A stretch of 32,000 nt of DNA, taken from assembly GCF_037902255.1 (NCBI RefSeq), contig NZ_CP147990.1, positions 1,860,001-1,892,000 on the forward strand, read 5' to 3'. Position numbers and translations under genes: made by a program. The notes below the pieces were generated by a model. The model was not told the DNA's origin, did not search any database, and saw nothing but the letters and a program-made list of their open reading frames with translations. This stretch comes from Candidatus Electrothrix sp. GW3-4 (GTDB lineage: Bacteria > Desulfobacterota > Desulfobulbia > Desulfobulbales > Desulfobulbaceae). Positions 5,898-31,368 of the stretch are shown here, piece by piece. Position 1 is the stretch's first letter. Every line of letters begins with the position of its first letter.

Positions 5898-5918
5898 ATT
5901 CTTTCTCTGCCGTTCTCT

Positions 5919-6254: not shown

Positions 6255-6353
6255 ATGTATTTGTCTTCCTATATACCAGGAGTTACCCTGGGCTCAGTAT
6301 ATTGACCCTTTCAGGGGTCGATTTTTCAATTTAACGACAAGATAAGTTTGCTG

Positions 6354-6465: not shown

Positions 6466-6486
6466 TACGAAAACCGCATGGTATAT

Positions 6487-9033: not shown

Positions 9034-9337
9034 GAACTCTTTGGGTAAAATAACGGTCTCTGTGGTTTTGCAAGCGGGCTGGCGCAATCTTCATGCGGGC
9101 CGTTGCAGGAAAAAAATGTCGCCTCGCTTTTAAAAAGCCAAGGCTTGTGATTTAATAGCGGCCTCTTGCTTTCTTGTTGCGGGCTGTGGATGAAAGAAAG
9201 CAAGGGCTGGATGTTTTGTTGCGAGATCTGGCAAGAAAGAATCCACTGCTTGCAATAAAAAAGTATGTGCTCGCAAGTTGATTGCAGCATCTCGCATCTT
9301 TTCTGCGAGAGCTTGCAACGTTAATGGAAGTCGTCCT

Positions 9338-9372
9338 TTTTAAAAACTGAAGGGGCAATTTATGAATTGCCC
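9338..9372 (-). terminator. Rho-independent terminator after the KAP NTPase gene
   Basis: An 8-bp stem pairs 9353-9360 with 9365-9372 around a 4-nt loop and abuts the TAA stop. In minus sense it is followed by cuucaGUUUUUaaaa. Confidence 0.5.
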
Positions 9373-10770: not shown

Positions 10771-10798
10771 GATGCTCCCTTAATGGTATGCCCGTAAA

Positions 10799-11848
10799 TC
10801 AAGACTCAACCCGATTCCGCCCGTTATTTTTTGCTAAATATAATTTTTCATCAACCGCTTCATATGCTTTCTGAAAAGAAGCAAAACGCGATACATCCAC
10901 CACCCCAAAACTACATGTAAAGGAGGGTACCTCACTTGTTTCAGTGGTTTTTTTTGCAACACGTTTTCTGATGTTATGAGCAATCATTTCAGCCTGAGGC
11001 AGGTCCTTCTCAATCAACACCATAAATTCTTCCCCACCCCACCTGACAAAAACATCATCACTCCTTATAGCTTCCTGGACAATCCTGACCAACTCAACTA
11101 ATGCCTTATCGCCAACATCATGACCGTATTGATCATTGATCTTTTTAAAAAAATCTATATCAATCATAATCAACGATAAAAATCCTTTTCCAAGACGAGA
11201 ACGTTTCATTTTCTCATCAATTATAGATTCGAAATAATGCCGGTTATAAATCCCTGTCAGCTTATCTATATTCGCTTTATTTTCAAGTTCCTGATTTTCT
11301 TCTTTTAAAGAAGCAACTTCACTCAAATCAACATCAACGCAAAACATCTCTGGATCTGAACTTCTTTCTCCAAGCATTATATGGGAAGAAAAAACATGGG
11401 CGGTCCCCCCATCTTTTCTTTGAAGTAATAATTCACCAGCTGGTATAACCTTTCCTTTTTCATACCAATCCGTAATAAAGGAAACAACATCTTCACGCAT
11501 TTTCTCAGGGATAATTAACTCCTCAAGCTTTTCTCCTAAAGCCTCAGTAGAGGTGTATCCATACATTTCTTCACTGGCTTTATTCCAATAAATAACTTCT
11601 CTTTTCTTGTTATAGCCCTGAACAGCAACAGACGGAATGCTATCAATTAACTCAATAAATTTCCTTTCTTCCCCCATACTCAGCAGCACCTGGCTTTTTG
11701 AGTATTTAATAATATTTGAAATTTTCTTTATTTTTTCTTCCTGTTCATCGGTAAAAGCAGACTCATGTAATGATGACAATATATGATTACAGTATTCAAT
11801 ATGTTCTTCTAATTTTTGCTTTATTTCAAACAACTCATCTTTATTCAT
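10799..11848 (-). CDS. PAS-GGDEF diguanylate cyclase with N-terminal coiled-coil region
   Basis: 349-aa ORF. The PAS-like segment is VAVQGYNKKREVIYWNKASEEMYGYTSTEALGEKL. The GGDEF domain contains IDKLTGIYNRHYF and RWGGEEF. An RSDD (RxxD I-site) lies five residues upstream of GGEEF. Confidence 0.85.
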   Translation of the reverse strand: MNKDELFEIKQKLEEHIEYCNHILSSLHESAFTDEQEEKIKKISNIIKYSKSQVLLSMGEERKFIELIDSIPSVAVQGYNKKREVIYWNKASEEMYGYTSTEALGEKLEELIIPEKMREDVVSFITDWYEKGKVIPAGELLLQRKDGGTAHVFSSHIMLGERSSDPEMFCVDVDLSEVASLKEENQELENKANIDKLTGIYNRHYFESIIDEKMKRSRLGKGFLSLIMIDIDFFKKINDQYGHDVGDKALVELVRIVQEAIRSDDVFVRWGGEEFMVLIEKDLPQAEMIAHNIRKRVAKKTTETSEVPSFTCSFGVVDVSRFASFQKAYEAVDEKLYLAKNNGRNRVES

Positions 11849-12161
11849 ATAATCATTCCCCAGAGTATGAACGCTTCAATCTCATCCCAGGGCAAACGCA
11901 TGACTTATGCCATAGAATTAATAGAATATGTAAACTCGTTCCATGTTTTATTGAAAATATGCTTCTCTCTATAGTTTTTATGCAATAACGACGCTTGGAT
12001 GACACTTTTTCAAGGAACTATACAAGCATTTTAACTATTTGTTATAAAAAGATAATATCTCGTGCGTTCGCCCTGAATCTCATCCTTTTCCGCAGTCAAC
12101 ATTTGGCCCGTATGCAAGGCAATCATAAGAACAGAAAGCCTATAAAGCCTGTGGAAATCTG

Positions 12162-12190
12162 TTGACACCAAGATATTAAACGTTATATAA
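12162..12190 (+). promoter_or_regulatory. Sigma70-type promoter for the AMIN-domain gene
   Basis: The -35 is TTGACA (12162-12167), the spacer is 16-17 nt, and the -10 is TATATA/ATATAA (12184-12190). It lies ~70 nt upstream of the ATG at 12262, which has an AAGGAA RBS. Confidence 0.55.
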
Positions 12191-12261
12191 CTATAAATAT
12201 TTACTGCGTAATATCATGTCTACCCAATCTTCCCATCACCAGTAGCAATAACCAAGGAACA

Positions 12262-13272
12262 ATGCTTAAAAATATCTCAGCGGTGACCGTCGCTCTTATC
12301 CTTCTGCTTTTCCAAGGCTGGCAGGCAACTGCGGCCCAAAAGATGCTTGAAGACATCAACTTCGAGTCCTCCGGCAACGGAGAAGATCGAATCATTTTTA
12401 AACTGAACGGCACCTATATCCCGAAAATATTCACTCTGCAAGGGAAACAACCGCGAGTGGTCTTTGATTTTCAGGATACCACTGCAGCCAAGGTGATTAA
12501 TAACATAATTAACACCAATGGTGAGCTGATTAAACGCATTCGGGTTGGTATCCATAAAGGGGACACCCCAAAGACCCGGGTTGTTCTTGATCTCCGTCCA
12601 AACAAGAATATTAATATTCGCCAGGATTTTGATAATAAAGAAAAAGCCTTGGTTGTCTCCGTTCACTACGCTGGCTTAAAACAGTCTGCTGAGCCAAAAG
12701 AACCTGTAGAAAAAACCGCTGCTGCCTCCCCTGAGCAGCTGGAAGAAAAACAGGAGCCCGAGGTCGTTGAGGAACAGCCGGAGCCAGCTGTTCAAGCTGA
12801 AGAAAAAATCCCTCAACAAGAAAAGAAAAAGGCTGAGTCCCAAACAGCTGAGCAGCCCCCGAAGCAGGAGGCAAAAGAGGTTGAAGAAAATCCAGGGGTA
12901 CCCACCCTAACCTCCGTTACCTTTGAAAATAACTCCAACCGGGGCGAGATGGTGCTGTTCAAGCTCAATGAGTTTCATCCCCCCATCGTCTTTGGTATTG
13001 AGGAAGGAACGCCAAGAGTGGTCTGTGATTTCAAGGACACCGTAGCAGCAAAGGATATCCCGGATAGCATCAAAATAGCAGGTAAATATATCCAGAAGAT
13101 TCGGGTCGGCAAAGACAAGAAAGAAAACAAGGTACGGGTTGTCTTAGATCTGATCCCGAATTACAGCTACGACCTGCAACAGGTCTTCTTTAAGGAAGAA
13201 AATCTCTTTGTGATTATCATCAATACGCTGGGCAATGCCCCTACGGGTGATCCTTCTGAACTGTTAAATTAA
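12262..13272 (+). CDS. Secreted protein with two AMIN domains joined by an E/P/Q/K-rich linker
   Basis: The signal peptide is MLKNISAVTVALILLLFQGWQATAA. There are two internal repeats: PRVVFDFQDTTAAK...IKRIRVGIH...KTRVVLDL and PRVVCDFKDTVAAK...IQKIRVGKD...KVRVVLDL. These match the AMIN fold pattern seen at the N-termini of AmiC and PilQ. Confidence 0.75.
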   Translation: MLKNISAVTVALILLLFQGWQATAAQKMLEDINFESSGNGEDRIIFKLNGTYIPKIFTLQGKQPRVVFDFQDTTAAKVINNIINTNGELIKRIRVGIHKGDTPKTRVVLDLRPNKNINIRQDFDNKEKALVVSVHYAGLKQSAEPKEPVEKTAAASPEQLEEKQEPEVVEEQPEPAVQAEEKIPQQEKKKAESQTAEQPPKQEAKEVEENPGVPTLTSVTFENNSNRGEMVLFKLNEFHPPIVFGIEEGTPRVVCDFKDTVAAKDIPDSIKIAGKYIQKIRVGKDKKENKVRVVLDLIPNYSYDLQQVFFKEENLFVIIINTLGNAPTGDPSELLN

Positions 13273-13297
13273 CAAGGCAGCGCAGATAAAAGTATAT

Positions 13298-13334
13298 AAA
13301 AAGGGACGCGGAATTGACCGCGTCCCTTTTTTTT
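13298..13334. terminator. Bidirectional Rho-independent terminator (AMIN gene on plus, TPR/LolB-like operon on minus)
   Basis: A perfect 9-bp GC-rich stem gggacgcgg/ccgcgtccc (13303-13326) has a 6-nt loop. It is flanked by A5 upstream and T8 downstream. Confidence 0.8.
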
Positions 13335-13360
13335 GTATTACTGAACAGCGGAGAAATAAT

Positions 13361-13585
13361 CTATTTCTTTTTATCTCTTCCTTCGTCCCAGCATTTAAAC
13401 TCTGGATACTTTTTAGGAAAATCAATCTCAAAGTAATTCTTGTACTTCTGATCCCTCGTTCCCAACCATTCCTCTATGTCAACAATAAATGGATTTCGTT
13501 TTGGTTTGGGTTTTAAGAATGGAGCAATAACGAGTACCACAACAATAAGAGCTATCATTACGAGCAACCCGCTCCCGTCATCCAT
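13361..13585 (-). CDS. Small single-pass membrane protein, unknown function
   Basis: 74-aa ORF with a strong GGAGGAGGG RBS. It has one hydrophobic helix (LLVMIALIVVVLVIAPFL) followed by a K-rich soluble tail. It is the last gene of the TPR operon. Confidence 0.5.
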   Translation of the reverse strand: MDDGSGLLVMIALIVVVLVIAPFLKPKPKRNPFIVDIEEWLGTRDQKYKNYFEIDFPKKYPEFKCWDEGRDKKK

Positions 13586-13618
13586 TGTCCCTCCTCCTAA
13601 CTAATATCCACCTCCCCT

Positions 13619-14443
13619 TCAGGATTCATTAATAATCTTTCGAATCTCGAAATGGGGCGGAATTTTTACCTGAAAACGTCTACGCTCCATCGGTTTAAAG
13701 TTAAAGATTTCTGTAAAGACGAGAGAGAAATCGGCATCCAAGGCGTCACCGGAAATTTCAATCCGGCCTGGCCAACTACACCTCTTTGGCGTTTTTGAGT
13801 ATTCGCTGTACTGGGCTTCAAACTGAATATTACCCTCTTTATCAAGCACCATATGACGGACTAACTGGTTCTTCTCATTAAGCGCCAGCATATGGCGCAT
13901 CTCCTTATCTTTACTGCTCTGAGGATAGGCGACCTCGTACCAGTACAGTTTATCCTCAGCATCCATCCTGGTTGATACGGTCTGCATGCCGTTCCGGTTG
14001 ATCCGACCACTGAGCCAATAGAAAAGATTATTGGTGGGGATAAACTCTGGGAGAAATTTTTTCACTACATCCAGATCCATTGTACCGGTGTAACCGATAG
14101 CCTCGTTATTATCGGCTAAGGTGAATCTGTTCCCGTAGGCTCCCAAGAGGACCAGCGGCCTGCCCAGGGGATCAATCATGGCCAGACGCAAAGAAGAGGG
14201 GTACATTGCCTGCATGGTTGCGGAAAAGGTCTTGTTCTGACCATAGGCCTGCCAGCTGAGCTGCACATCACAATCCACTGCATTCACACAGGATTGGCCG
14301 AGAAAACGGGTAAGTTTGCTTTCTACCTGCCGCAATTCCTTACTGTTGCTGATTTCTACGGTCTTTGGCGGTGTTGCCGCACACCCCGCCAATATTAACA
14401 CCCCTGCGCAACACCACAAGAGTCCCTGGGCGCTTACTTTCAT
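13619..14443 (-). CDS. LolB-like / DUF4292-like outer-membrane lipoprotein
   Basis: The lipobox is VLILAGC. IDPLGRPLVLLG...FTLADNN...NLFYWLSGR follows the LolB/DUF4292 pattern. Its ATG overlaps the stop of the TPR gene (14440-14443). Confidence 0.6.
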   Translation of the reverse strand: MKVSAQGLLWCCAGVLILAGCAATPPKTVEISNSKELRQVESKLTRFLGQSCVNAVDCDVQLSWQAYGQNKTFSATMQAMYPSSLRLAMIDPLGRPLVLLGAYGNRFTLADNNEAIGYTGTMDLDVVKKFLPEFIPTNNLFYWLSGRINRNGMQTVSTRMDAEDKLYWYEVAYPQSSKDKEMRHMLALNEKNQLVRHMVLDKEGNIQFEAQYSEYSKTPKRCSWPGRIEISGDALDADFSLVFTEIFNFKPMERRRFQVKIPPHFEIRKIINES

Positions 14444-19648: not shown

Positions 19649-21181
19649 TCATCCCACATCAAATTGTTGCCGTCGATATTGCACGGCTTCGGCAACATGC
19701 GAAGAATCAATCTGCTCAGCTCCGGTAAGATCGGCAATAGTGCGAGCAATCTTGATAATTCGGTGATAGGCACGCGCTGACAAGCCAAGTTGCTCAATAG
19801 CGCTATTGAGCAGGGTCTTTCCCGGCTGATCCAATGAACAAAATCTTTCGATTTGGCGAGACCCCATCTGGGCATTGCAGTTGATGAGCGGCGCAGAAAC
19901 AAAGCGTTGCTGCTGTCGTTTGCGAGCTGTATTAACCCGCTTACGAATTGTCACTGACGATTCGCCCGCCTTTTGGGTGCTGATCTCCTCTACCTGAACT
20001 GGTGGCACCTCCACATGCATGTCGATTCGATCCAGCAGAGGCCCTGAAAGTTGATTACGGTAGCGTTGCACCTGCACAGGCGAGCAGGAACACGACTTTA
20101 CTTTATCCCCCAAGAAGCCACAAGGACATGGGTTCATAGCGGCTACAAGCATGAAAGTTGCCGGAAAACGAAGACTTGCAGCTGCCCGGGCAATAGTGAC
20201 AATGCCGTCCTCCAAGGGCTGACGCATGACCTCTAAGACATGCTTACGAAATTCCGGCATCTCATCAAGAAACAGAACCCCGTTATGGGCCAATGAGACC
20301 TCACCGGGCCGGGGAATTCGTCCACCGCCAATTAATCCTGCATCTGAGATGGTATGGTGGGGTGTGCGAAAGGGACGGGTCACCAGCAAAGGCATATCTT
20401 CAGGGAGAAGACCAGTGGTGGAATAGATCTTGGTGGTTTCCAGGGCCTCTTCCAGACAAAGATCCGGCAGGATAGTGGGTAGCCTCCGGGCCATCATGGT
20501 CTTGCCGGTTCCGGGCACCCCGCTGAGCAAGATGTTATGCCCCCCAGCCGCTGCCACCTCAAAGGCGCGTTTAGCATGTTCCTGCCCACGCACCTCGGAA
20601 AAATCCACGGAGTATTGATTCCGTCTGGAAAATAAGGCCTGCACGTCGGTTCGAGACGGTGCAATACTCTGTTGTCCGGCAAGAAAGTCCATGGCCTGCC
20701 GCAGGCTTTGCACCGCAATGATCTCAATCCCATCGACCACAGCCGCCTCATGGGCATTATCCCCAGGAACCAAAAAACGTTGGATTTTATTCTGCTTTGC
20801 CTCCAACACCATGGGAAGAACACCCCGGACCGGTCGAACTGCGCCATCAAGGGACAGTTCTCCTACAATAGCGGTATGTTCCAATTCTGGACAGGTTAGC
20901 GTGCCTGAAGCAGCAAGAATGCCTAAGGCGATGGGCAAATCATAGCCAGCCCCTTCCTTTTTCACCGCTGCCGGGGCTAGATTCACCGTTATCCTGCGTG
21001 GTGGAAACTCATAGCTCGAGTTTTTTATCGCCGCTTTTACCCGATCCTTGGATTCACGTACTGCTCCCTCAGCCAGACCAACCGTGAAAAAACCGGGCAG
21101 CCCCAAGGCCAGATCCACTTCCACACGAACTATAAGACCGTCGACACCTGCGACGGCACCGCTAAGTGTTTTGGAGAGCAT
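19649..21181 (-). CDS. comM: YifB/ComM-family Mg-chelatase-like AAA+ ATPase
   Basis: 510-aa ORF. The N-terminus is Lon-protease-like (GLPGFFTVGLAEGAVRESKDRV). Walker A is SGVPGTGKTM and Walker B is VLFLDEMPEF. A Cys cluster NPCPCGFLGD...CSCS is present. Confidence 0.9.
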   Translation of the reverse strand: MLSKTLSGAVAGVDGLIVRVEVDLALGLPGFFTVGLAEGAVRESKDRVKAAIKNSSYEFPPRRITVNLAPAAVKKEGAGYDLPIALGILAASGTLTCPELEHTAIVGELSLDGAVRPVRGVLPMVLEAKQNKIQRFLVPGDNAHEAAVVDGIEIIAVQSLRQAMDFLAGQQSIAPSRTDVQALFSRRNQYSVDFSEVRGQEHAKRAFEVAAAGGHNILLSGVPGTGKTMMARRLPTILPDLCLEEALETTKIYSTTGLLPEDMPLLVTRPFRTPHHTISDAGLIGGGRIPRPGEVSLAHNGVLFLDEMPEFRKHVLEVMRQPLEDGIVTIARAAASLRFPATFMLVAAMNPCPCGFLGDKVKSCSCSPVQVQRYRNQLSGPLLDRIDMHVEVPPVQVEEISTQKAGESSVTIRKRVNTARKRQQQRFVSAPLINCNAQMGSRQIERFCSLDQPGKTLLNSAIEQLGLSARAYHRIIKIARTIADLTGAEQIDSSHVAEAVQYRRQQFDVG

Positions 21182-21215: not shown

Positions 21216-22337
21216 TCAGGTGAAAGAATTAAAAATATCTACAAGTCGAGGTATAATCTTTTCTACCGAATAATGTTGTTCTACAACAGTTCTTCCTTTC
21301 TCACCCATTTGCTTCCGCAGAGCAGCACTATCAACTAATGCTGCTAAAGTATCTATCCATTCTGTATAGTTTCTCGGGCCAAAACCGATCTCATCTTTCC
21401 CGAGGACTTCTTTATTCATTCCAGTAGGAGAGACGACAACCGGAATGCCTGTTGCCATATACTGAAGCATCTTAAAAGAACATTTACCTTTTTCCCATTT
21501 AGTATCATGCAATGGCATAATACCAATGTCCATTTTTTGAACGGCCTGCACTTCTGTCTCAGGTGACCAAGGAAAGAAGCAAACATTTTGCGCAGGTAGA
21601 CGAGTAAATAGAGGAGGCGTATCCGCTACAACAAGTAATTTCACAAAAGGAAACTTTTCAAACAGATACAAAAGAACATTTTCAACATCATAAAGGTATT
21701 TGTAATTACCTGATGTTCCGATCCAGCCTATGTATAGACACTCTTGGGAAGAAAAGGACCTCGGGTACCAACGCTCGGTATCAACCCCGGTTGGAAGAAT
21801 CCACGTTGGAACATTACAACCCTCAAAATGATTAGCAAGCCATGAATTTCCGCAAATCAGCCCATCCATCTTTCGCACAATTTTCTGTGCAAAATTTTCT
21901 GTTGCTTTAAGCCTCAACCAGATAGCATCATCTACATCAAATATTCTCGGGCGGTTAGTTAGCCCTTCTGTCGTTGCGAAAGCCGTTAAGAACTCCCTCT
22001 GAATCCATGTAATATCAGATCGATAACTTTGAATAATTGCAGGAATTCTTGATGCAATCCTAAGCCCTGCTGTTCCTAGTTGAGGAATAGCTTGAACAGG
22101 TAATGAATATTTATGATACCAATACCTACCCGATTTAGAGATAAATGGATAGTATTCGCTAACATTAATATTATATTCAGCTAATCCATTGATATATTGG
22201 CGTACACGAAATCTTGCGGAAGGTTCGTTTTCTCCGCCAGTTATTGCGGTGATATTCAACGTAACTATCAAATATAAATTTATTATTTTTTGCCACAAGC
22301 AATCAAATTTACAGAAATAATTCTCTGCCAATCGCAT
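21216..22337 (-). CDS. Glycosyltransferase, group 1 / GT4-like
   Basis: The C-terminal KGKCSFKMLQYMATGIPVVVSPTGMNKEVLG block is the GT-B donor-binding region. The start is uncertain. ATG 22337 overlaps the upstream gene by 55 nt, while TTG 22271 would leave an 11-nt gap. Confidence 0.7.
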   Translation of the reverse strand: MRLAENYFCKFDCLWQKIINLYLIVTLNITAITGGENEPSARFRVRQYINGLAEYNINVSEYYPFISKSGRYWYHKYSLPVQAIPQLGTAGLRIASRIPAIIQSYRSDITWIQREFLTAFATTEGLTNRPRIFDVDDAIWLRLKATENFAQKIVRKMDGLICGNSWLANHFEGCNVPTWILPTGVDTERWYPRSFSSQECLYIGWIGTSGNYKYLYDVENVLLYLFEKFPFVKLLVVADTPPLFTRLPAQNVCFFPWSPETEVQAVQKMDIGIMPLHDTKWEKGKCSFKMLQYMATGIPVVVSPTGMNKEVLGKDEIGFGPRNYTEWIDTLAALVDSAALRKQMGEKGRTVVEQHYSVEKIIPRLVDIFNSFT

Positions 22338-23008
22338 TCACTAAAATAAATCATTATCCTTAGAAAGAAACGGACAGCAACGACGATAGACTTTTTAAGT
22401 GCAAAAAGCAGATTATAGACTCCTATTTCCTCTTGATAACAATGAATATCAACAAATCCTACATGCCGAAAAAGTTGAGTTAAAGATTTTTCATGAAATG
22501 ATATTGTGTGTGTTAAATCAAGATACCTTGATGCATGACTTAACGGACAGGCCGAGTTAATAGTTTTTACAATAATAAGTCCATTGGGTTTGAGAGATCT
22601 ATACAAAGCTTGCAAAAAAGAAATAAGATGTTCTTTCTCGATATGTTCTAATACATCGTTCATTGTGACCACATCGTATTTTTCTTCGTGCTGCAAACAA
22701 AAATCAACAGAGTCAACAACATGACGAAAATCAACATCAGGCTGCATCTTTAAAGCAAGCTCTATCTGGGTACTCGACATATCGATACCGGTAGTATTTG
22801 AAAACCCATCTTTTCGTAAATAAAAAAGAAACTGACCCAAGCCGCATCCTACGTCAAGAATTTTAGCATTTTTAGGAAGTGAAGAAAAAAAACGTTGATA
22901 GTTCCATCTATACTTTCTCGCTACCAACTCAAAACTTTTCAAGTCAAGGCCTTGACTTTTGCTTAGCGAAAATCCTTCCTCATAGTAATTATTATACAGT
23001 TCTTTCAT
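22283..23008 (-). CDS. Class I SAM-dependent methyltransferase
   Basis: Motif I is ILDVGCGLGQF, and an acidic post-I residue and VTMNDVLEHI are present. I prefer the start at ATG 23008 (MKELYNNYYEEG) over the track start 23086. Confidence 0.8.
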   Translation of the reverse strand: MKELYNNYYEEGFSLSKSQGLDLKSFELVARKYRWNYQRFFSSLPKNAKILDVGCGLGQFLFYLRKDGFSNTTGIDMSSTQIELALKMQPDVDFRHVVDSVDFCLQHEEKYDVVTMNDVLEHIEKEHLISFLQALYRSLKPNGLIIVKTINSACPLSHASRYLDLTHTISFHEKSLTQLFRHVGFVDIHCYQEEIGVYNLLFALKKSIVVAVRFFLRIMIYFSECDWQRIISVNLIACGKK

Positions 23009-24293
23009 GGGAGAGCCTAGCTTCAGATTTAATAAGATATGCGAGTGAGGCACACGCTGCAAGCAGCAAAGATATGCCACCGGCAAGAATACTGAGCTGC
23101 TGCACTAAACTAACGAGTATAAGCACATTGCAGACTAAAAAAAAAAGCTGTGACCGAAAAGTTATTTTACTCTCGTTAGCTCCTTTACTAGCTAGATAAT
23201 ATGTTTTCAGTTGCACATGAAATTGAACAGCATTAAACAGGCATAAACTGCTAAACAGCCCAAGTGACATTGGATACGAGTACATCCACAAAACAAACCC
23301 GCCTACAGTAACTGATACAAATATGGTAATTGGATACTGAAAAAGGATAAATTTTCCTAACAACTCACTAATATTATTACTTCTACAAAATATTGGAAAA
23401 ACATACGTCAAAATAATCGTCATAAAGGCGCTAATTATTCCATAGGTAGACAAAAAATGGGCCTGATAAACCCCTACTTCTTCAGCTCCAAGGGTTCTAT
23501 TAATAAGAATCCGATCGATGCTAAAAGTGGCCATCCCTACCAATCCATTGAGGAGTAAAAAATATCCTTGATAAAGAATATTTCTAATATATTCCAATCT
23601 AATCTTCTCAAAGAGAGCCAAAAAAAATTTCTTTGAAAAGCAAAATCCAGCAAAAAAATAACCTAGAAAAAAAATGTAACTGACTGCAACAAGGTCTGCC
23701 AGATACCAGCCCCAAAATAATCCCAATACTCCAAACAGCACAATAAGAGCCCATATATTTTCGATAAGCACATAAGCAGACCAATCCTCCCTGCCTTGGA
23801 CGATATGTTTTGTTAAAATCCACCAAGAGTAAAAAATAGTCATAATCAATGTCAGGCTCATCAGCTGTGGTGTGACGTTAAACAATCTTACAAAATAATT
23901 TTGCAAAACAGCGAGAAAAGTCGTCACAAGAAGAGAACTGACGAAAACTACCAAAAGTAAAGATGTTAAAGCCTGTCGTTTTTTTCTTTCTTCTTTCTCC
24001 TTTGACACGATTTTTATGAAAACCAACCCCCAACCATTCACTATAGGCATAGAAAAATAGCTAGATAAAAGAATAATCATGGTAAGTTGCCCATATACTT
24101 CCGGCCCTAACTTTCGTCCCATAATAATCTGAGCGGCTGTGGAGAAAACTCTTGCCGCCAGCATTCCCACCCCGAAAATTATAAATTTTTTAACCTGCGT
24201 TTGTGCCTGGGGAGAAGGATCGCTATGGAAAATACGTTGCCAGAAAAAAATGAAAGTACGTTCTATGATTGATTTCAGCATATGAAACTGCAT
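22992..24293 (-). CDS. Wzx-like polysaccharide/oligosaccharide flippase (MOP superfamily)
   Basis: 433-aa ORF with about 12 hydrophobic helices. It sits among glycosyltransferases, and its size and topology are typical of Wzx. Confidence 0.7.
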   Translation of the reverse strand: MQFHMLKSIIERTFIFFWQRIFHSDPSPQAQTQVKKFIIFGVGMLAARVFSTAAQIIMGRKLGPEVYGQLTMIILLSSYFSMPIVNGWGLVFIKIVSKEKEERKKRQALTSLLLVVFVSSLLVTTFLAVLQNYFVRLFNVTPQLMSLTLIMTIFYSWWILTKHIVQGREDWSAYVLIENIWALIVLFGVLGLFWGWYLADLVAVSYIFFLGYFFAGFCFSKKFFLALFEKIRLEYIRNILYQGYFLLLNGLVGMATFSIDRILINRTLGAEEVGVYQAHFLSTYGIISAFMTIILTYVFPIFCRSNNISELLGKFILFQYPITIFVSVTVGGFVLWMYSYPMSLGLFSSLCLFNAVQFHVQLKTYYLASKGANESKITFRSQLFFLVCNVLILVSLVQQLSILAGGISLLLAACASLAYLIKSEARLSHERTV

Positions 24294-24569: not shown

Positions 24570-25262
24570 TCAAATATATGAAACAAAACCAAAAGCTGCT
24601 AAGCCAGCAAGATATTTTGAATGTCTTTTTGGGGTCATTGGCAAAAATCTTAATATGCCTTCGACATAGTTTTTGAGCTCTGGTGAAAATTTGATCTCCA
24701 TAATAATATGAGGATATGTAATTTGAGGAAACTCTTTAATCTTTCCTCTTGCAGTAAGGCTCCTGAACTTAACCTGTCTATCAAATGTCACCCGTACCCC
24801 TTGGTAATCTTCAAAGTACTGCCTGTAATATTCAATATGTAACACAGGGGTATAATATGAATGCGCCAAGCAATTAATTGACGGATTTTCGGTAAGCAAA
24901 TGTTGAGCAGAGTCAATGAGTTCACAAATCGGCTGGTCCAGTAACTTTTGTCTATTTTCTAAAGATAAATCAAATTTTTCCTTGTAACCCAACCGTCCTT
25001 CCCTGTTTTTATACTCAAGTGCAAACCTTTTTATCCCATCACCATCGCGATACCATCGAAATCTTATTTTTCGACGTCTTGATAGACCAACCAAATTGTC
25101 TTTAACTGCCTGGAAGTAAAGATCGTCAAGGTAGAGGCTGTTAACAAATCGTCCATCATATTTTTCCCGAATAAATGTATGAGAATATATCCAATCTAGT
25201 GCTGTTGTCAGGTTTATCTCATTTAAAATGAATTTTATCTCGTAACGATATTCGTGACTCAC
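24570..25262 (-). CDS. VTC-domain protein (polyphosphate-polymerase-type triphosphate-tunnel fold)
   Basis: 230-aa soluble ORF. YRYEIKF at the N-terminus, SLYLDD, RRRKIRFRWY, LEYKNR and IMEIKF match the alternating charged beta-strand pattern of bacterial VTC-domain proteins. The GTG start overlaps the CotH stop (GTGA at 25259-25262). Confidence 0.75.
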   Translation of the reverse strand: MSHEYRYEIKFILNEINLTTALDWIYSHTFIREKYDGRFVNSLYLDDLYFQAVKDNLVGLSRRRKIRFRWYRDGDGIKRFALEYKNREGRLGYKEKFDLSLENRQKLLDQPICELIDSAQHLLTENPSINCLAHSYYTPVLHIEYYRQYFEDYQGVRVTFDRQVKFRSLTARGKIKEFPQITYPHIIMEIKFSPELKNYVEGILRFLPMTPKRHSKYLAGLAAFGFVSYI

Positions 25263-27877
25263 TTCTTCATAATCTCTGTCTCATACAAATCTTTAGTGTC
25301 AAAGTCTGTTGCCGACACTTCTTCACCATCCATCAACATGGATGTTCCTATCTGACGCATAAAAGTCGTTTGCGTATTTTCACCAAACTCAGAATTCTTT
25401 ATGAGCAGCAACGGTGAATCATAAAAATCTTTTTTTATATAACTCATAGCAGCACTCAACGTATAGCCATCTACCGTGGAACCTTCAAATGTCGCCCGGC
25501 TTCCGTCCTTTACAGCAATCCCTACGCCGACATTTTTCAGGTAACAGCTCAATACATGCACGCTACTCGCCTCACCCACCGAGACAGCTTTATCTTTTAT
25601 ATCGACAAATTCGTTATGAGTTAGCGTAACAGAGCTTCCTGAAAAATCGACACCATCGCCATTTATCCTTTTAAAGGATGAATTCTGTACTTTTCCTGAT
25701 GAAAAATCGCTATCAAAAGCATCGGACGCAGTGGACTGAATTTCAATATTCGACAGAGAAAAAGTAGAGTGAACAATATTTAAAGCGTCTTCAGCTTGAG
25801 ATCCATCAAATATGATATTTTTCATTACAATGTTTGAAGAATAGAAAGTAACCCCACCAGTAAGTGAGAGTATACCATCTTCAAGTCTTTTAGTATGGCG
25901 TATAATTATATTTTCTAGATATGATTTTTCTTCTGCATTAATAATATATATTCCTTTCCACCACCCATTTTTTTGAGATTCTAATACAATACCTTTCCCT
26001 TCTTTTCCTCTAGCGTCTATACTTCCCTTAATGATTAAATATGCTTTCTCGGCAAAACGCAAAGTTGTTCCTGGTGATATTTGTAAAGAGCCATTCACCG
26101 TCAAGGGCTCTTTAATATCCCAACTCCCTGGAAGTATTTTCCAGCTATTTCTTTTGGTGCGCTGCAGGAAGGGTAAATCATCAGGCGTTGCATTCAGTAA
26201 GGGATTTGATATACCATCAGAAATTAACGTGATGCCGGAGTCAACTTTTCTAACATGCCCCTTAAACTCTGTTTCTACAATTATATCATTATCTTGAACT
26301 CCTGTTATTTTTGTTTTAATAATATAGGGACGATAGTTGGTATATCCTGGTATTACAATATCGTTGACCAGCTGATTTTTACCGTTAAAGAAAATTTTTT
26401 TTAACGTCACAGGTTCCTTTAAAAGATTGTACAACTCCAAAATTCCATTATCGTAGTGGCGAACATGAATATGTTTCGATAAGACCGCTGCTTCTCTGGT
26501 AGAAATTTTTTTTTGAACATCTATCTCCTTAGCTCCCTGAGAGTTAAGGTTATTTTGCTCAAAAAAACCACCCTGATATCTGTTAACTATTTGAAAATTA
26601 TTATAAACGATACCAGTATCTTCGTATTTATCTAATGGAAAAAAGCTATGATAGTAGTTAAGCTCTTTCCCTAAGAAATGAATCGCTTTTTTAACTTTCC
26701 CTACATTATTCTGAAAATTTCTTTCAAAAGCTTCACTTGATAAAATATCACGAAACTCAGGCTGGTTAAAAGGAGTATAGCCTATTGGGACCCAATGACC
26801 TTGTTTGTCTGTTTCGATTGGCAGAAACTTACCTTGATCGGTAGTGAGAGGTTCCAGCTTCAACGTGTAAGGATTATAGTAATGTCTGCAGTTTGTATTT
26901 GCCAGCGTATGATAATTATTCCACAAAGCTGCAAGTAGCAAAATTTTACTGTATTGATCTATACTGTAAAGATGAGCATGATTCTCTTTAAGTCTCTCTT
27001 GAGCAATATATGTAAATTGCTTCCTGTAATTTTTTTTTGTTAAATATTTTTTTTCACCAAATACACTGAGATTGAGAAGGCTGTCGCTCAGTCGGTACCC
27101 GGCGGGTAGTTTTGTATTTTTCTCCGTAAGCCATTTTTTGTCATTTGAGAACTTAACAACTAAAGAATCTTTAACATTCTGCTTTTCAAGTAATTCTTTA
27201 GAAATATGCTCTTCCATATTCATTACTCCCCAACTGCTGCCATTAACATAAACACGTACATATTTATGCTGAGGCGATAGACCACCAGCGTGACGTGCAA
27301 GGGCTTGAAAAGTTGCATCAAAAGGATGCTGCCTAGCTCTTGGTTTATGAATAGAAAACTTTTTAAATCCCAATATTGTTTTTTTACCTTTAATGCTAAC
27401 CCGTAAGCTAACCCGTTGTTTACTTATCCAATGATCTCCAAGGTCTCCTTTCAGTCGTAACTTCACTTTATACGTTTGATTATTAAACCTTATTTTCCCT
27501 TTTACTGTTGTTGGATCTATGAGCATTCCAGCTGCAATTGCCCTGTCTCTATCCTTCATAATTTTTTGATATTCAAGAAAATCTATATCAAAATCTAATC
27601 GTTCCAGAAAGGGACGTTCTGGAAAGCCGACTATATAGCCCTTAATGATATCATAACATTTTTCAATCCTTGCCTTCCCGTCACGCTCCTTCAGGTCCAA
27701 ATAGAGACTTTTTATAGATGAAAATCCAGGATCTAGCATTAAAACTTCATAAAAAGGATCAGAAAGAAAAAGCTGCAGTCTCTGACGTTCTATAAAGAAA
27801 GTTACCAGTAAAATTAACAGCGTAACTACGCATAATTTTATCTTATCTTTGGAATTTCGTTTCTCGTATACAATCAC
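25259..27877 (-). CDS. Membrane-anchored CotH-family (atypical kinase) protein fused to a C-terminal right-handed beta-helix domain
   Basis: 872-aa ORF. The N-terminal anchor is KIKLCVVTLLILLVTFFI. The CotH-like core is KFSIHKPRARQHPFDATFQALARHAGGLSPQHKYVRVYVNGSSWGVMNMEEHISKELLEK. The C-terminal ~280 aa contain PbH1-like repeats (NIVMKNIIFDGSQAEDALNIV..., INGDGVDFSGSSVTLTHNEF...). The start is GTG with no visible SD. Confidence 0.75.
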   Translation of the reverse strand: MIVYEKRNSKDKIKLCVVTLLILLVTFFIERQRLQLFLSDPFYEVLMLDPGFSSIKSLYLDLKERDGKARIEKCYDIIKGYIVGFPERPFLERLDFDIDFLEYQKIMKDRDRAIAAGMLIDPTTVKGKIRFNNQTYKVKLRLKGDLGDHWISKQRVSLRVSIKGKKTILGFKKFSIHKPRARQHPFDATFQALARHAGGLSPQHKYVRVYVNGSSWGVMNMEEHISKELLEKQNVKDSLVVKFSNDKKWLTEKNTKLPAGYRLSDSLLNLSVFGEKKYLTKKNYRKQFTYIAQERLKENHAHLYSIDQYSKILLLAALWNNYHTLANTNCRHYYNPYTLKLEPLTTDQGKFLPIETDKQGHWVPIGYTPFNQPEFRDILSSEAFERNFQNNVGKVKKAIHFLGKELNYYHSFFPLDKYEDTGIVYNNFQIVNRYQGGFFEQNNLNSQGAKEIDVQKKISTREAAVLSKHIHVRHYDNGILELYNLLKEPVTLKKIFFNGKNQLVNDIVIPGYTNYRPYIIKTKITGVQDNDIIVETEFKGHVRKVDSGITLISDGISNPLLNATPDDLPFLQRTKRNSWKILPGSWDIKEPLTVNGSLQISPGTTLRFAEKAYLIIKGSIDARGKEGKGIVLESQKNGWWKGIYIINAEEKSYLENIIIRHTKRLEDGILSLTGGVTFYSSNIVMKNIIFDGSQAEDALNIVHSTFSLSNIEIQSTASDAFDSDFSSGKVQNSSFKRINGDGVDFSGSSVTLTHNEFVDIKDKAVSVGEASSVHVLSCYLKNVGVGIAVKDGSRATFEGSTVDGYTLSAAMSYIKKDFYDSPLLLIKNSEFGENTQTTFMRQIGTSMLMDGEEVSATDFDTKDLYETEIMKK

Positions 27878-27898
27878 TGTACATTTAAAATGTTCTGT

Positions 27899-28562
27899 TT
27901 ATAACGGATTCTGTTGATATCCAGAATTTCCATTCATAAAGGCAGATATGAACAAATTGTTCAGCCACATGTCATCGTATCGTTTTCCGTTCGGACGTTC
28001 CGCCGGACAGATTTTCCCGCTATGTTTTTGACCGTTGCCGGTGACGAAGGACAAAAATTTCAGAGGAGTGCCAAGGCTCTGACACGTCGGTTTCCAGCTT
28101 CAAGCGTTCCGTAAAAATACATACTGTCAAAGCAGGCCCGATCTATGGATTTCATCAGACGATCAACCATATTACTGGTACGATGCGCATTTTTATGATC
28201 ATAGCTCTTGATAAAAAACTGCCGTTTTGCACATAAGTCCATGATGTGTTCCTTCATCGGAGAATCAAAAACCTGCTCTGTGACCCATTCTTTCAGACGT
28301 CTGAGACGCTGCGCGAACGATGCCTCTTTTCGGGCCCAATAAACACCATACCTTTTCGGATACCTGAGTAAAAGATTCTCTCAAGACTTTGGTCGCACGA
28401 TTGCGTATCTTGATGAATGCATTAAAAAAACATTGGATAACAGAACTTTTTTGGAAAAAGTTTTTTCCAAACGCTCTGAGTAGGAAGCCACCCGTCCGTA
28501 TTCACCGATTCGGGAGCATAAGCGGGGTTAACCCGACCGAGCCTCATCGGCAAAAACTCGGA
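27899..28562 (-). pseudogene. C-terminal remnant of a DDE transposase (family uncertain; multiple frameshifts)
   Basis: Pieces in three minus-strand frames read in order: APESVNTDGWLPTQSVWKKLFP; VIQCFFNAFIKIRNRATK; YWARKEASFAQRLRRLKEWV...NAHRTSNMVDRLMKSIDRACFDSMYFYGTLEAGNRRVRALALL; ICPAERPNGKRYDDMWLNNLFISAFMNG...stop. The N-terminal half is absent, and the upstream edge abuts the ISL3 remnant. Confidence 0.6.
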
Positions 28563-29604
28563 TCATCCGGCAAACGGGTACGTTGAAGCATGCATATCAT
28601 AAAGCCTGAGCTTGAAGTATTCCATATCTCTGAAGCCGTATGCCTGCCGTTTTATAGTTTTGATTTTATTATTGAGCCCCTCCAAAGGACCGTTTGTAAT
28701 TCTATGCGGGTAATAATTCAGCAGTCCACTCCAGTGCCTGAGCATCATGGCACCTATTGAAATAAGCTGCTTGAGAAAGGCTGCTGCTGTTTTTCCGTTG
28801 CGTTGCTGCCAAAAGAGCCGGAGCTGCTCTTTCATGCTGTACATAATAAACAGGGGGCGGTTTTGACTTCCAGGAGGTTTTCGAGCCTGCACTTGTTCCT
28901 CTCGGTCAGACTGTGAAAGTTACGCAGAAGGAGAAAACGAGATCCTTTCAGGATATTCTGTCCGGCAGTATCAAGCAGATTGAATTGTTCACGACGCAGG
29001 GAATCAATCCCCCGGTTTATCTGCGCCATAATATAACGATCAAAAATGATCGGAACATTGCGAAAAAATTCCTTGAACGAAGAGATAAAGCTACCGCTCA
29101 TATCCATAGAAACCGCCTTGATATTACGATACACGGTTGTCAGCTTCGCTTTATGGATATTTTTCACCGTATCCCAACCAATATGGAGATATTCGGCAAC
29201 AGATTTGATTGTTCCGAAACGAAGCAGATCAAGCACTGTCAAGGCAAAAGAGCGGGTATATCGAGCTGTTTCCTTCATAAAAGAAAGGCGCGGCCACCAC
29301 AGATTTTTACATTGTCCGCATTCCAGTCGATGCATCGTCAATTCAAGAACCGCATGTTTTCGACCGATTGGGGCATCCGCAGTTGCCTGACCTTCTTCCC
29401 CTTAAAAACGGAATACCGATGACCGCAGGCCGGGCACCGTATATGACGATCCGAGGCCTCAACTCTGAAGAAAATGGTGTTGCCGACAAAGTAAGTAGAT
29501 TGATAAATTACACCTTTTATGCCGAAAGCGTGGTAGAGTATGGAGCTGGACATGGTTGAGACCTCATGAAACTGTTTGTATGGGTAACAAACAGCATGTC
29601 TCAC
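28563..29604 (-). pseudogene. ISL3-family transposase, broken into three frames with internal deletions
   Basis: Three ORFs make up the gene. ORF 29338-29604 carries the zinc-finger segment HIRCPACGH. ORF 28832-29341 reads HRLECGQC...TIKSVAEYLHIGWDTVKNI...AVSMDM...IIFDRY. ORF 28563-28892 reads HRITNGPLEGLNNKIKTIKRQAYGFRDMEYFKLRL. The segment between YRNI and KAVSMDM is missing. Confidence 0.8.
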
Positions 29605-29656
29605 ACCATGTCTTTTCGCTACTCTTTTTTCTCAAAAGTACTCGTTTGCCGGATGA
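28563..29656 (-). mobile_element. Decayed ISL3-family insertion sequence
   Basis: The 19-bp terminal inverted repeats match at 18 of 19 positions: tcatccggcaaacgggtac (28563-28581) and gtactcgtttgccggatga (29638-29656). They bracket the broken ISL3 transposase. At ~1.1 kb the element is shorter than intact ISL3 elements. The 8 bp flanking each end differ, so I see no target-site duplication. Confidence 0.7.
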
Positions 29657-29699
29657 ACCTACAAAAAAACCAAAATGCAATTTTTTTTCAAAAAGACTG

Positions 29700-30392
29700 C
29701 TACCAATTTGTTTTAGCTTCATAAAAGGAGACTGTTGCACTTGGATCAAATTTATTCATTTCCTGTATTACATCACTTAGCTCTATCTCCTTTTCTGGCG
29801 ACAATAAAAGAACAGCTGTCTTCCCAGTTCCCCCAGAATCAAACCTTATTAACTTTATAGATCTTGAGTGGTTAGACAATATTTCCGCAAGAAATGTAAG
29901 CGTAAAAGAATCGTCTACCCAGTTAACTACTATATTGTACTCAAGTACCTCCCCCTCTTTCCTGTTAGAAAGCCATAAATATGTCATTGCAAGAGTTAAA
30001 ATTGTTAGCAATGAAGTGATTAAAGAATGACCCGCTGCGTACCCTAGACCAACAGATATTGCAAGAAACAGATAGACTAGTTCTTCAGGTTCCTTTATCG
30101 GAGTTCTAAATCTAACTATAGATAATGCACCAACTAAACCAAGAGATAAAGCAAGAGATGATTTTACAATAACTATTACGATAAATACAACAGATGACAA
30201 CAAAGGAAGAACTGAAGCAATATGATGTTTACCCGTCAAAGAAAAAGATCTCTTCAAGTAAAAATATCTAATTACAAATGACATAGCTACGCACAGCAAA
30301 AAATTAAAGCATGTAGGAAGTAAATCAAGCTGGTTCTGTGTAATTCGAAGCCCTTCCGTTATATTTAAAATATTTTCCATAAAATTATTCAA
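29700..30392 (-). CDS. DUF4956-family integral membrane protein
   Basis: 230-aa ORF with 4-5 TM helices and the family hallmark LVGALSIVRFRTPIKEPEELVYLFLAISVGLGYAAG. A soluble C-terminal domain follows. Confidence 0.75.
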   Translation of the reverse strand: MNNFMENILNITEGLRITQNQLDLLPTCFNFLLCVAMSFVIRYFYLKRSFSLTGKHHIASVLPLLSSVVFIVIVIVKSSLALSLGLVGALSIVRFRTPIKEPEELVYLFLAISVGLGYAAGHSLITSLLTILTLAMTYLWLSNRKEGEVLEYNIVVNWVDDSFTLTFLAEILSNHSRSIKLIRFDSGGTGKTAVLLLSPEKEIELSDVIQEMNKFDPSATVSFYEAKTNW

Positions 30393-30420
30393 CCTAAGAA
30401 TATAAAAAAATAATCTATTT

Positions 30421-31368
30421 TCATTTCAAATCCTTATTACACTCCATATCAAACCACATAGCAAACAGTGTAAATAAACTAGAGCTCATAAAGGAAAACA
30501 TGGCTGCCAAGGTATTGATAGGAGGAAGATGCCCATCAATACCGAGATAAATAAAGGCACGGACAGTCAGAATAAAGCCAAAAAACAAGAAGAGCCCTCC
30601 AAGAAAATAAAAAAAGATGAGCGGATGAAAATCACGAATTATGTATTTTTCCACCATCCTTCTCGTAAAGCCCTTAACAAGGATCAAGGGAATGGTACAG
30701 AGCACTTTTTTCACCTTAATACCGGAGACTTCTCCCACATTATAAACTGGTCGTATTGAGATATCCCTGACCCGAAAATTGGCAATATTCAGACTGATCA
30801 GAAGATCATTGGGCATTCCGTAGCGCGGATAGATTGCCTCCAGATCAAGAGCCTTCAATGCCTGCAATGAGATGGCGGTATATCCACTCTGTGAATCAGC
30901 CACATGCCAGTACCCTGAGGCTATCTTAGTAAACAAAGAAAGAAAAGAGTTGCCGATATAGCGATACTTGGGAATCATCCCCCATGACTCACCGCGAAAC
31001 AGCCGATTACCCTTTGTGTAATCGCATTCCCCCCTACAGACAGGCTCTAAAATTCTCGGCAGATCTTCCGGGTCCATCTGAAAATCAGCCGCCATGACAG
31101 CAGCCACATCTACCTGTTGATCCCGGGCCCAGATATATCCCGTTGCAATGGCTGCCCCGACACCTCGGTTCCGCTCATGTTCAAGGCAGACGATCTTCTT
31201 ATTCGCTGTTGCCAACGCCTGGACAACAGCCACGGTCTGGTCTTGACTGCGGTCGTCAACCACCACGATAATGTCCACATAGTTGGGCATGGTCTTGATG
31301 ACCTTTCCGATGAGTTTTTCCTCGTTATACGCAGGAATGACAACGGCTATTTTCTTTTCAAGGTGCAT
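30421..31368 (-). CDS. GT2-family glycosyltransferase with C-terminal TM helices (polyprenyl-phosphate sugar transferase-like, GtrB/ArnC type)
   Basis: The N-terminus is IAVVIPAYNEEKLIGKVI...IIVVVDDRSQDQT (GT-A with DxD region). Two C-terminal hydrophobic helices and the ~315-aa size are typical of GtrB-like enzymes. Confidence 0.75.
   Translation of the reverse strand: MHLEKKIAVVIPAYNEEKLIGKVIKTMPNYVDIIVVVDDRSQDQTVAVVQALATANKKIVCLEHERNRGVGAAIATGYIWARDQQVDVAAVMAADFQMDPEDLPRILEPVCRGECDYTKGNRLFRGESWGMIPKYRYIGNSFLSLFTKIASGYWHVADSQSGYTAISLQALKALDLEAIYPRYGMPNDLLISLNIANFRVRDISIRPVYNVGEVSGIKVKKVLCTIPLILVKGFTRRMVEKYIIRDFHPLIFFYFLGGLFLFFGFILTVRAFIYLGIDGHLPPINTLAAMFSFMSSSLFTLFAMWFDMECNKDLK

Follow-up and report, generated by a model that had tools for sequence, protein, structure and literature searches.

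A conserved DUF4956, CotH-like and VTC gene trio from a cable bacterium: a candidate system for polyphosphate synthesis coupled to export

Bacterial polyphosphate (polyP) synthesis is attributed to PPK1 and PPK2, whereas VTC-type polymerases are treated as eukaryotic, and there is no established route for polyP to the bacterial surface or into the medium. Here we analyze a 32,000-nt stretch of the genome of the cable bacterium Candidatus Electrothrix sp. GW3-4 (the window, in whose positions all of its coordinates are given), which carries, all on the minus strand, genes encoding a DUF4956 membrane protein, a CotH-like protein fused to a beta-helix and a stand-alone VTC-domain protein, together with several neighboring glycan genes (Table 1). 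The analysis establishes that the first three genes form a real, widespread and uncharacterised cassette, in which a VTC-type enzyme is found in a non-homologous bacterial membrane and periplasmic setting.

Among described systems, the eukaryotic VTC complex (3G3Q, 7YTJ, 8I6V) shares with this trio its catalytic domain, which falls in the same Pfam family (PF09359) with conserved RLRWY, YxR, ExK and SK motifs, and its proposed logic, a cytoplasmic polymerase obligatorily paired with a membrane component. It differs from the trio in that the bacterial VTC protein is a 230-aa stand-alone protein without SPX or fused transmembrane (TM) domains, in that a DUF202-type three-helix Vtc1-like subunit stands where the bacteria have DUF4956, with five predicted TM helices and an ACT-like domain, and in that the extracytoplasmic CotH-fold protein has no counterpart among yeast Vtc1-4. 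The same protein families have also been reported in linkage in bacteria, often beside exopolysaccharide genes. Gram-positive pel operons are accompanied, according to Whitfield et al. (bioRxiv 10.1101/768473), by the accessory genes cotH, a "poly-phosphate polymerase", DUF4956 and DUF4832, to which these authors assigned no function, speculating only that CotH might regulate Pel, and Lepp et al. (PMC2879425) described in the NELoc-2 locus of C. perfringens two VTC-"tubulin" pairs adjoining CotH and a chitin-synthase-like gene, likewise with no function assigned. We suspect that these "tubulin" genes are DUF4956. The Gram-positive versions have a shorter CotH and extra genes, whereas the subfamily present in the window occurs mostly in Pseudomonadota and other aquatic diderms and is distinguished by a fusion of CotH to a PL3-like beta-helix, by an Asp-to-His change and by the fixed order DUF4956, CotH-like, VTC.

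The literature searched contained no functional study of DUF4956, VTC-domain or trio proteins, and a 2026 preprint (PMC13484657) reports PPK-independent extracellular polyP in the B. cereus group, with no VTC4 homologue there and its source called unknown. Co-occurrence of the three families is already published; the present analysis adds its quantitative linkage, the topology of the system, the active-type residue set of the VTC protein and, for its two partners, the Asp-to-His change and PL3-like domain of the CotH-like protein and the absence of homology between DUF4956 and the yeast channel.

The DUF4956, CotH-like and VTC genes were found together in 17/17 VTC-anchored distinct loci with enough flanking DNA, hosted by E. 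communis, Alphaproteobacteria, an Akkermansia metagenome-assembled genome (MAG), Sulfurovum, SAR86, Halioglobus and other Gammaproteobacteria. The scan of genome contigs relied on a single peptide pattern and yielded 13 loci, which was compensated by a metagenome scan anchored on DUF4956. Of the 80 loci recovered in the latter, 55 contain the complete trio and each of the remaining 25 is truncated at an end of its contig; no locus with room on both sides lacks a partner (55/55 evaluable). These counts substantiate the recurrence of the three families that the original prediction, a note made from the DNA alone, had mentioned for other bacteria. That prediction had also grouped the trio with the adjacent GT2 glycosyltransferase gene as a four-gene module. 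The four minus-strand open reading frames (ORFs) and their family assignments hold, by Pfam and, in the case of CotH, with the help of a structure model, but the conserved unit comprises three genes and not four, with a linkage far beyond chance, and in the window the DUF4956 and CotH-like genes are set apart by insertion-sequence (IS) debris. The commonest arrangement is DUF4956, CotH-like, VTC (46 loci), and a few loci present minority layouts with VTC before CotH, CotH first or DUF4956 divergent. CotH-to-VTC junctions show a 4-nt overlap in 33 of 65 cases, most others lie within a few nucleotides, and in the window the VTC start overlaps the CotH-like stop by 4 nt; this spacing indicates translational coupling of the two genes.

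Several contigs depart from the single-copy arrangement. Tandem paralogous sets occur on single contigs, three in locus L056 (4160-16449) and two in locus L087 (1566-7421), which suggests diversification, perhaps for different acceptors. In the scan of viral sequences, which returned one contig only, an IMG/VR 'viral' contig (L029, 4433-8567) carries a VTC-DUF4956 pair beside a phage holin, a glucosaminidase and a MiaB-like radical-SAM gene, and probably represents host sequence flanking a prophage. On this contig, which ends about 2.6 kb beyond the pair, a CotH-like gene was looked for and not found, showing that VTC and DUF4956 can occur without an adjacent CotH. Searches of plasmids by tblastn with the CotH-like domain and VTC gave nothing useful.

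The VTC protein matches PF09359 with 92.8 bits against a cut-off of 23, its residues 6-223 aligning to profile positions 2-233 of 235. The domain covers the 230 aa end to end, with no SPX domain and no TM segment, in keeping with the soluble protein originally proposed, and the window protein has no CYTH match at E <= 0.01. With 12,232 cluster representatives at E <= 1e-3 the family is a large one, and its best 150 representatives are all stand-alone proteins of 218-252 aa. A single-sequence PDB search was uninformative, returning only Vtc2 at E 0.017, and a family profile was needed; the profile matched the central domains of Vtc2 (3G3O, 1.1e-13) and Vtc4 (3G3Q, 1.8e-7), with Vtc3 also matched. 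In an alignment of 41 family sequences, 25 columns are invariant, with the alternation that a tunnel built of beta-strands would produce. The alignment to Vtc4 pairs KlRLRWY with HRLRWY, lEiK with VERK, YeReYF with YNRTAF, lRvTiD with VRISLD, ilEiKf with VLEVKL and RhSKYLaG with KFSKFIHG, so that the motifs RLRWY, ExK, YxR, RxTxD, ExK and SK are brought into register. In these alignments the Ser-Lys pair is kept in the bacterial family and in Vtc4, and is replaced in the inactive Vtc2 (HGQW) and Vtc3 (FSLY).

The catalytic positions of Vtc4, as reported by Hothorn et al. (2009), are K200, R264/R266, K281, Y359/R361, R373, E426 and S457/K458, and all of these except K200 fall within the motifs aligned above. 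Across 70 unique bacterial sequences, E8, K10, R67, R69, E83, K85, R147, E189 and K191 are kept in all 70, Y145, S215 and K216 in 69 and R157 in 66, with 16 tunnel residues kept in 69-70 of the 70. Conservation of the tunnel had been named beforehand as a point on which the original prediction could fail; the residues proved invariant and of the active Vtc4 type. As judged from sequence, the protein appears to be an active-type (Vtc4-like) triphosphate-tunnel domain without SPX or TM parts, and would polymerise polyP instead of hydrolysing it.

The DUF4956 protein matches PF16316 with 55.9 bits (cut-off 30.6) and has more than 8000 homologues at E <= 1e-5. Its start was placed at ATG 30380, since the resulting 226 aa are typical of homologues. 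Mean column identity over 30 homologues is 65%, and these share a nearly invariant stretch of about 45 residues, VKSSLALSLGLVGALSIVRFRTPIKEPEELVYLFLAI.IGLGYAAG. The extreme C-terminus is also conserved (...F.EAKTNW), as is that of the CotH-like protein (...LY...VMKK), and these tails could be docking or sorting signals. The structure model of DUF4956 (pLDDT 69.5) contains helices at residues 2-43, 51-72, 75-90, 98-116 and 119-139, followed by a beta-alpha-beta-beta-alpha-beta domain. Foldseek searches gave weak ACT/PII-like matches for this C-terminal domain (E 1e-3 to 1e-2 over about 80 residues), nothing for the membrane part and no match to VTC chains.

The acidic N-terminus of DUF4956 and the basic segments that follow helices 1, 3 and 5 lead us to predict an N-out, C-in topology with five TM helices and a cytoplasmic ACT-like domain. 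VTC would then share the cytoplasmic side of the membrane with the ACT-like domain and the invariant SIVRFRTPIKEPEEL loop. A channel role for DUF4956 is plausible from its position and conservation, by analogy with the yeast complex, and 'VTC-like channel' denotes an analogy only, because homology to the yeast channel subunit is undetectable. Two other assignments were considered for this protein. A Vtc1-like identity, assessed with a Vtc1 query sequence confirmed as 8I6V_A, is unsupported by both hhalign and Foldseek, and an identity with MgtC/YhiD, taken from one JGI name, is unsupported at Pfam E <= 0.01, the architecture of five TM helices plus an ACT-like domain being reminiscent of that family. 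A single-sequence PDB search with DUF4956 produced chance antibody matches only.

The CotH-like protein has a partial Pfam CotH match (28.9 bits against a cut-off of 23.8) limited to the N-lobe, at residues 166-262. A single-sequence PDB search gave no match, and searching the PDB with the family profile likewise failed to retrieve CotH. The structure model, in contrast with the sequence searches, is of high quality (pLDDT 91.4, pTM 0.89), and its best PDB match in Foldseek is B. cereus CotH (5JDA/5JD9; E 4.4e-12, target-normalised TM score 0.65, about 380 columns), which confirms the CotH fold at the level of the model. The protein consists of an N-terminal TM anchor, a CotH kinase-like domain (residues ~90-470), a beta-sandwich linker and a PL3-pectate-lyase-like beta-helix (~570-850). 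Its single TM segment spans residues 10-34, with five Lys and Arg residues before it and two after, and this bias predicts an N-in orientation with the bulk of the protein in the periplasm, as the original prediction had it. The 872-aa GTG start was preferred over the 826-aa NCBI call because homologues of 860-880 aa, which align over their whole length, have in common a basic start followed by the N-terminal hydrophobic helix. The NCBI start loses the conserved TM anchor, and the start of the E. communis orthologue (845 aa) is apparently truncated likewise.

In B. subtilis CotH the catalytic Asp is D228, and D228Q and D251A mutants are inactive (PMC7821199). To compare this site, the 5JD9 sequence was recovered with a B. 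subtilis CotH query, which was validated at E 5e-142. The hhalign probability between the CotH-like family and 5JD9 is low (6.9%), and the alignment agrees with Foldseek and with the secondary-structure register, pairing NNYH-TLANT-N with QNFD-GFVH-N and LEPLTTD with FEVIPWD. In this alignment H323 lies opposite the catalytic Asp of NFDGFVHN, N329 corresponds to the catalytic-loop Asn and D347 to the metal-binding Asp (B. subtilis D251), and the order of secondary-structure elements in the model (helix, loop, strand, turn, strand) is in accord with this pairing. H323 and N329 are each kept in 64/67 sequences and D347 in 62/67. The window protein thereby resembles Bacillus CotH (5JD9/5JDA) in its fold and in retaining N329 and D347, and differs from it in having His for D228, a membrane anchor, a predicted extracytoplasmic site and a beta-helix fusion; Bacillus CotH, in turn, acts on coat proteins using ATP. 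Because the catalytic Asp is replaced by His, this subfamily is not a standard CotH kinase, and of the kinase role originally proposed the fold stands while the canonical catalytic residue does not.

Four shorter CotH proteins found elsewhere beside VTC and DUF4956 retain the N.DWP..N and D.D motifs and have an N-terminal TM anchor, and the two that were scanned present full-length Pfam CotH matches (1e-42 and 1e-46). Since these anchored partners keep the canonical Asp and DxD, an extracytoplasmic kinase fold beside VTC and DUF4956 is a general feature, with the Asp-to-His change, on the sequences compared, specific to the beta-helix subfamily found in the window. The beta-helix itself matches polysaccharide lyases, epimerases, AlgG, NosD and PL3 pectate lyases in Foldseek. 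Its likeness to the PL3 pectate lyases (1EE6, 4YZ0) comprises a weak alignment of the family profile to 1EE6 (E 1.4e-3) with a GxDAL and DK pattern, and a Foldseek match (E ~6e-3) with a target-normalised TM score of ~0.4-0.46 to the C. bescii enzyme; the window domain differs in being part of a much larger anchored protein. Residues D741, D744, D762, K763, K790 and D791 of the beta-helix are kept in 66/67 sequences, and these invariant Asp and Lys residues would suit binding of a polyanion or Ca2+.

The genes flanking the trio in the window place it within a glycan locus. Pfam confirmed the Wzx-like flippase, the methyltransferase and the GT4 glycosyltransferase that had been noted downstream, and upstream the GT2 protein has one hydrophobic stretch, residues 247-279, long enough for two TM helices, its best NCBIfam matches being AglJ, PpgS, PgfS and ArnC, all below their cut-offs. 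The original prediction had enlisted GT2, Wzx and GT4 as partners of the trio, and this part did not survive comparison. GT2 lies directly upstream of the trio only in the window and in a Sulfurovum MAG (L017), no homologue of the Wzx-like gene was found beside the trio in the other loci searched, and none of GT2, Wzx and GT4 occurs at the E. communis locus, at the alphaproteobacterial ones or at several more. A rough phmmer census, made without a matched control, placed a glycan-type gene within 5 kb of the trio in 21/53 loci, or in 16/48 when loci that supplied queries were excluded, and detected none nearby in the remaining 32 of the 53. Clear cases include the Sulfurovum locus (4781-14041), with the N-glycosylation-type arrangement GT2, GT2, trio, GT4 and a PglB/STT3 oligosaccharyltransferase, a SAR86 locus (L018; GT2...trio-Wzy-GT4) and a Tara contig (L025; WecA/epimerase-trio-TylF/epimerases). 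The link of the trio to surface glycans is recurrent and non-obligatory, and GT2, Wzx, the methyltransferase and GT4 are local neighbors.

This recurrent context raises the question of whether the trio might be a surface-glycan modification module without polyP export. The CotH/beta-helix protein would then be a glycan-processing or glycan-binding enzyme, combining a lyase- or epimerase-like helix with a pseudokinase scaffold, and VTC and DUF4956 would act as a regulator or energiser, for instance as a triphosphate-tunnel (TTM) hydrolase that senses or consumes triphosphate or polyP, with the ACT-domain protein relaying the signal. The census and its PglB, Wzy/GT4 and WecA/epimerase examples are consistent with such a module, as are the beta-helix matches to polysaccharide lyases and epimerases, the replaced catalytic Asp of CotH and the ACT-like domain, which suggests ligand sensing; most characterised bacterial TTMs, moreover, are reported to be hydrolases. 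The module is less easily reconciled with the 32 loci where no glycan gene was detected, with the retention in VTC of the full polymerase-type residue set instead of a generic CYTH pattern, and with the intact kinase site of other VTC-linked CotH partners, which argues for real extracellular phosphotransfer. On balance we regard a glycan module of this kind as rather unlikely, while giving it serious consideration.

The copy of the trio in the window is unusual in its spacing. The DUF4956 and CotH-like genes are 1,822 bp apart (27878-29699), whereas the spacing between them elsewhere is 11.5 nt at the median and never exceeds 237 nt. Most of the interval is an ISL3 remnant bounded by 25-nt inverted repeats (28560-28584 and 29635-29659) that are 88% complementary, with a transposase split over three frames and Pfam DDE_Tnp_ISL3 and HTH_Tnp_ISL3 matches on ORFs 28563-28892 and 28832-29341. 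The adjoining stretch of about 680 bp yields a 105-aa conceptual translation without Pfam match, and nothing equivalent to it was seen in the gaps of the other loci. The debris could indicate that the window copy is a decaying remnant, an operon uncoupled by IS insertion whose genes are no longer co-expressed, and a comparable event is seen in an alphaproteobacterial MAG (L012, 4489-6479), where the DUF4956 gene is cut in two by an insertion with two minus-strand ORFs that resemble, as judged by eye, IS3-type OrfA/OrfB. The three core coding sequences of the window are nevertheless intact and full length and retain every family-invariant residue, and the insertion lies between genes and points the same way as they do, which could still allow the CotH-like and VTC genes to be transcribed by read-through or from a new promoter. 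That this copy is decaying seems to us decidedly unlikely.

We favor the reading that the trio encodes a three-protein inner-membrane machine coupling polyP synthesis to translocation and extracytoplasmic use, which we consider possible, if still short of probable. This polymerase, channel and user model is preferred because it accommodates the active-type VTC, the obligatory membrane protein, the outward-facing kinase fold whose gene is translationally coupled to that of VTC, and a compartment free of ATP. In the model, soluble VTC would polymerise the gamma-phosphate of ATP into polyP in the cytoplasm, an activity suggested by its residue conservation, while docked at the invariant loop and the ACT-like domain, on the side of DUF4956 that faces the cytoplasm. 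The membrane protein, probably oligomeric, would line the path of the chain across the inner membrane with its conserved TM3-loop-TM4 block, a step suggested by topology, conservation and obligatory linkage and analogous, not homologous, to the yeast VTC channel. The CotH-fold/beta-helix protein, tethered by its one N-terminal helix, would receive the chain in the periplasm, where it may either use polyP as phosphoryl donor in the ATP-free compartment, so that a surface glycan or protein becomes phosphorylated, or bind, cap, trim or anchor the chain. The PL3-like beta-helix with its invariant Asp and Lys would suit a Ca2+-bridged polyanion, and its resemblance to periplasmic enzymes that handle anionic polymers (AlgG, PL3 lyases) speaks for the model. 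The glycan island of the window (GT2, Wzx, methyltransferase, GT4) may supply the acceptor, as a local and not a universal link.

A similar division of labor is found in synthase-dependent exopolymer systems such as alginate Alg8/Alg44/AlgG and cellulose BcsA/BcsB, which offer an analogy of a cytoplasmic-face polymerase, an inner-membrane conduit and a tethered periplasmic handler of an anionic polymer, with AlgG, a beta-helix epimerase, among the fold matches of the CotH-like beta-helix. The trio differs from them in having no GT2 synthase, cyclic di-GMP receptor or outer-membrane porin, and its polymer would be inorganic. The arrangement of polymerase, channel and external user put forward in the original prediction is matched by the geometry of the predicted topologies and finds no counterpart in detectable homology of DUF4956 to Vtc1. 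Its central idea is still the leading hypothesis, over-extended in its inclusion of the glycan genes.

Several observations count against such a machine. Hydrolases and cyclases are also found among the TTM enzymes, and a polymerase cannot be told from a polyphosphatase by its sequence alone; the equivalence of VTC K10 with Vtc4 K200 is proposed from strand order and falls outside the printed alignment, and no VTC-DUF4956 fusion exists among the best 150 VTC-family representatives. For the membrane component, hhalign of DUF4956 against yeast Vtc1 (8I6V_A) gives a probability of 3.9% over 24 columns, and the DUF4956 model, only moderately confident at its pLDDT of 69.5, shows no pore. The Asp-to-His change of the CotH-like protein could equally denote a pseudokinase, and CotH-fold kinases are not known to use polyP. 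No outer-membrane component is linked to the trio, and in the window the IS remnant may interfere with its transcription.

Part of the same evidence could be read as a periplasmic store of phosphate or cations, in which the CotH/beta-helix protein is only a polyP-binding sheath or a length-controlling polyphosphatase, serving phosphate buffering or metal sequestration without phosphorylation of an acceptor. Marine or aquatic hosts predominate (SAR86, Pelagibacter, Thalassospiraceae, Sulfurovum, Electrothrix, Tara samples), many loci have housekeeping neighbors only, and the invariant acidic and Lys residues of the beta-helix fit binding of a Ca2+-bridged polyanion as in PL3 lyases. A store of this kind leaves unexplained both why a kinase fold, whose site is intact in some of the partners, is always linked and why the glycan context recurs, and polyP binding is itself conjectural; we hold it to be improbable, to much the same degree as decay of the window copy. 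The inner-membrane machine can also be formulated in a stronger version, in which the trio is a PPK-independent polyP synthase-exporter, DUF4956 a new kind of channel and the CotH-fold partner an enzyme that uses polyP and not ATP, possibly via phospho-His, to phosphorylate or polyP-cap envelope glycans or proteins. This full version strikes us as unlikely.

A mobile defence or conflict cassette unrelated to polyP would account for the variable context of the trio, the low-GC island in which it lies, the IS elements nearby and the tandem paralogous copies. PADLOC, however, gave no match at E <= 0.01 for GT2, DUF4956, CotH-like or VTC, and on this ground we reject a defence role; the membrane and periplasmic architecture, the glycan context and the lack of nuclease, NTPase or toxin domains likewise speak against it, making it extremely improbable.

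The VTC, CotH-like and DUF4956 proteins of the window are 100% identical to NCBI MAG proteins, and a 32.8-kb Logan contig carries the same locus. None of the three core proteins is covered by an NCBIfam model. The locus lies downstream of a divergent gyrA, and the 21-31 kb block constitutes a low-GC island, with a GC content of 0.34-0.43 compared with ~0.50-0.55 in the adjoining 18-21 kb.

Table 1. Features of the trio locus and its surroundings (ORF, open reading frame; IS, insertion sequence; SAM, S-adenosylmethionine)
Feature	Position	Strand	Basis
GT2 glycosyltransferase, polyprenyl-phosphate-sugar synthase type (GtrB/ArnC/AglJ-like)	30421-31368	-	Pfam PF00535, E 1.9e-24
DUF4956 membrane protein	ORF 29700-30392; ATG at 30380, 226 aa	-	Pfam PF16316, E 5.5e-15
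ISL3-family IS remnant, frameshifted transposase	28560-29659	-	Pfam matches and 25-nt inverted repeats
Extra non-coding or degraded sequence, ~680 bp, origin unassigned	27878-28559	.	Short ORFs only
CotH-fold and right-handed beta-helix protein, 872 aa, GTG start	25259-27877	-	Pfam CotH E 1e-6, Beta_helix E 2.7e-7
Stand-alone VTC-domain protein, 230 aa	24570-25262	-	Pfam PF09359, E 3.2e-26
Wzx-like polysaccharide flippase	22992-24293	-	Pfam Polysacc_synt, E 7.5e-17
SAM-dependent methyltransferase	ORF 22283-23086; gene 22283-23008	-	Pfam Methyltransf_23, E 3.9e-27; 241 aa as called in Logan contig
GT4 glycosyltransferase, last gene of low-GC island	21216-22337	-	Pfam Glyco_trans_1_4, E 2.1e-9
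YifB-type Mg-chelatase	19649-21181	-	

As originally stated, no ppk-type gene is visible in the window: neither ppk nor ppx was found among the ORFs scanned, a search that left aside ~2.7-4.7 kb, where there is no ORF of at least 120 aa. The sole gene with a phosphate-regulon flavor among these ORFs encodes a PIN-domain PhoH-like ATPase (1365-2705, plus strand). Promoter and terminator scans performed no better than on shuffled sequence (18 promoter-like sites against 21.4 expected), and a TG-extended -10 site at 31447-31419 is for this reason only a hint. Elsewhere in the window, a match to the Rfam Acido-Lenti-1 small RNA (6354-6399, plus strand; 38.8 bits against a gathering score of 37, E 1.5e-5) is found near the end of a radical-SAM/DUF2344 gene (6487-9087), and a second low-GC patch (0.35 at 11-12 kb) contains a KAP-family P-loop NTPase and a PAS-GGDEF diguanylate cyclase (9373-11848).

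The trio is a concrete candidate for polyP synthesis coupled to export, and it raises the possibility of phosphotransfer in a compartment free of ATP. Even if the polyP reading is wrong, three families at the level of a "domain of unknown function" gain a shared context. If its stronger version is true, bacteria would have an energy and phosphoryl currency outside the cytoplasm, and surface or extracellular polyP would have a genetic source.

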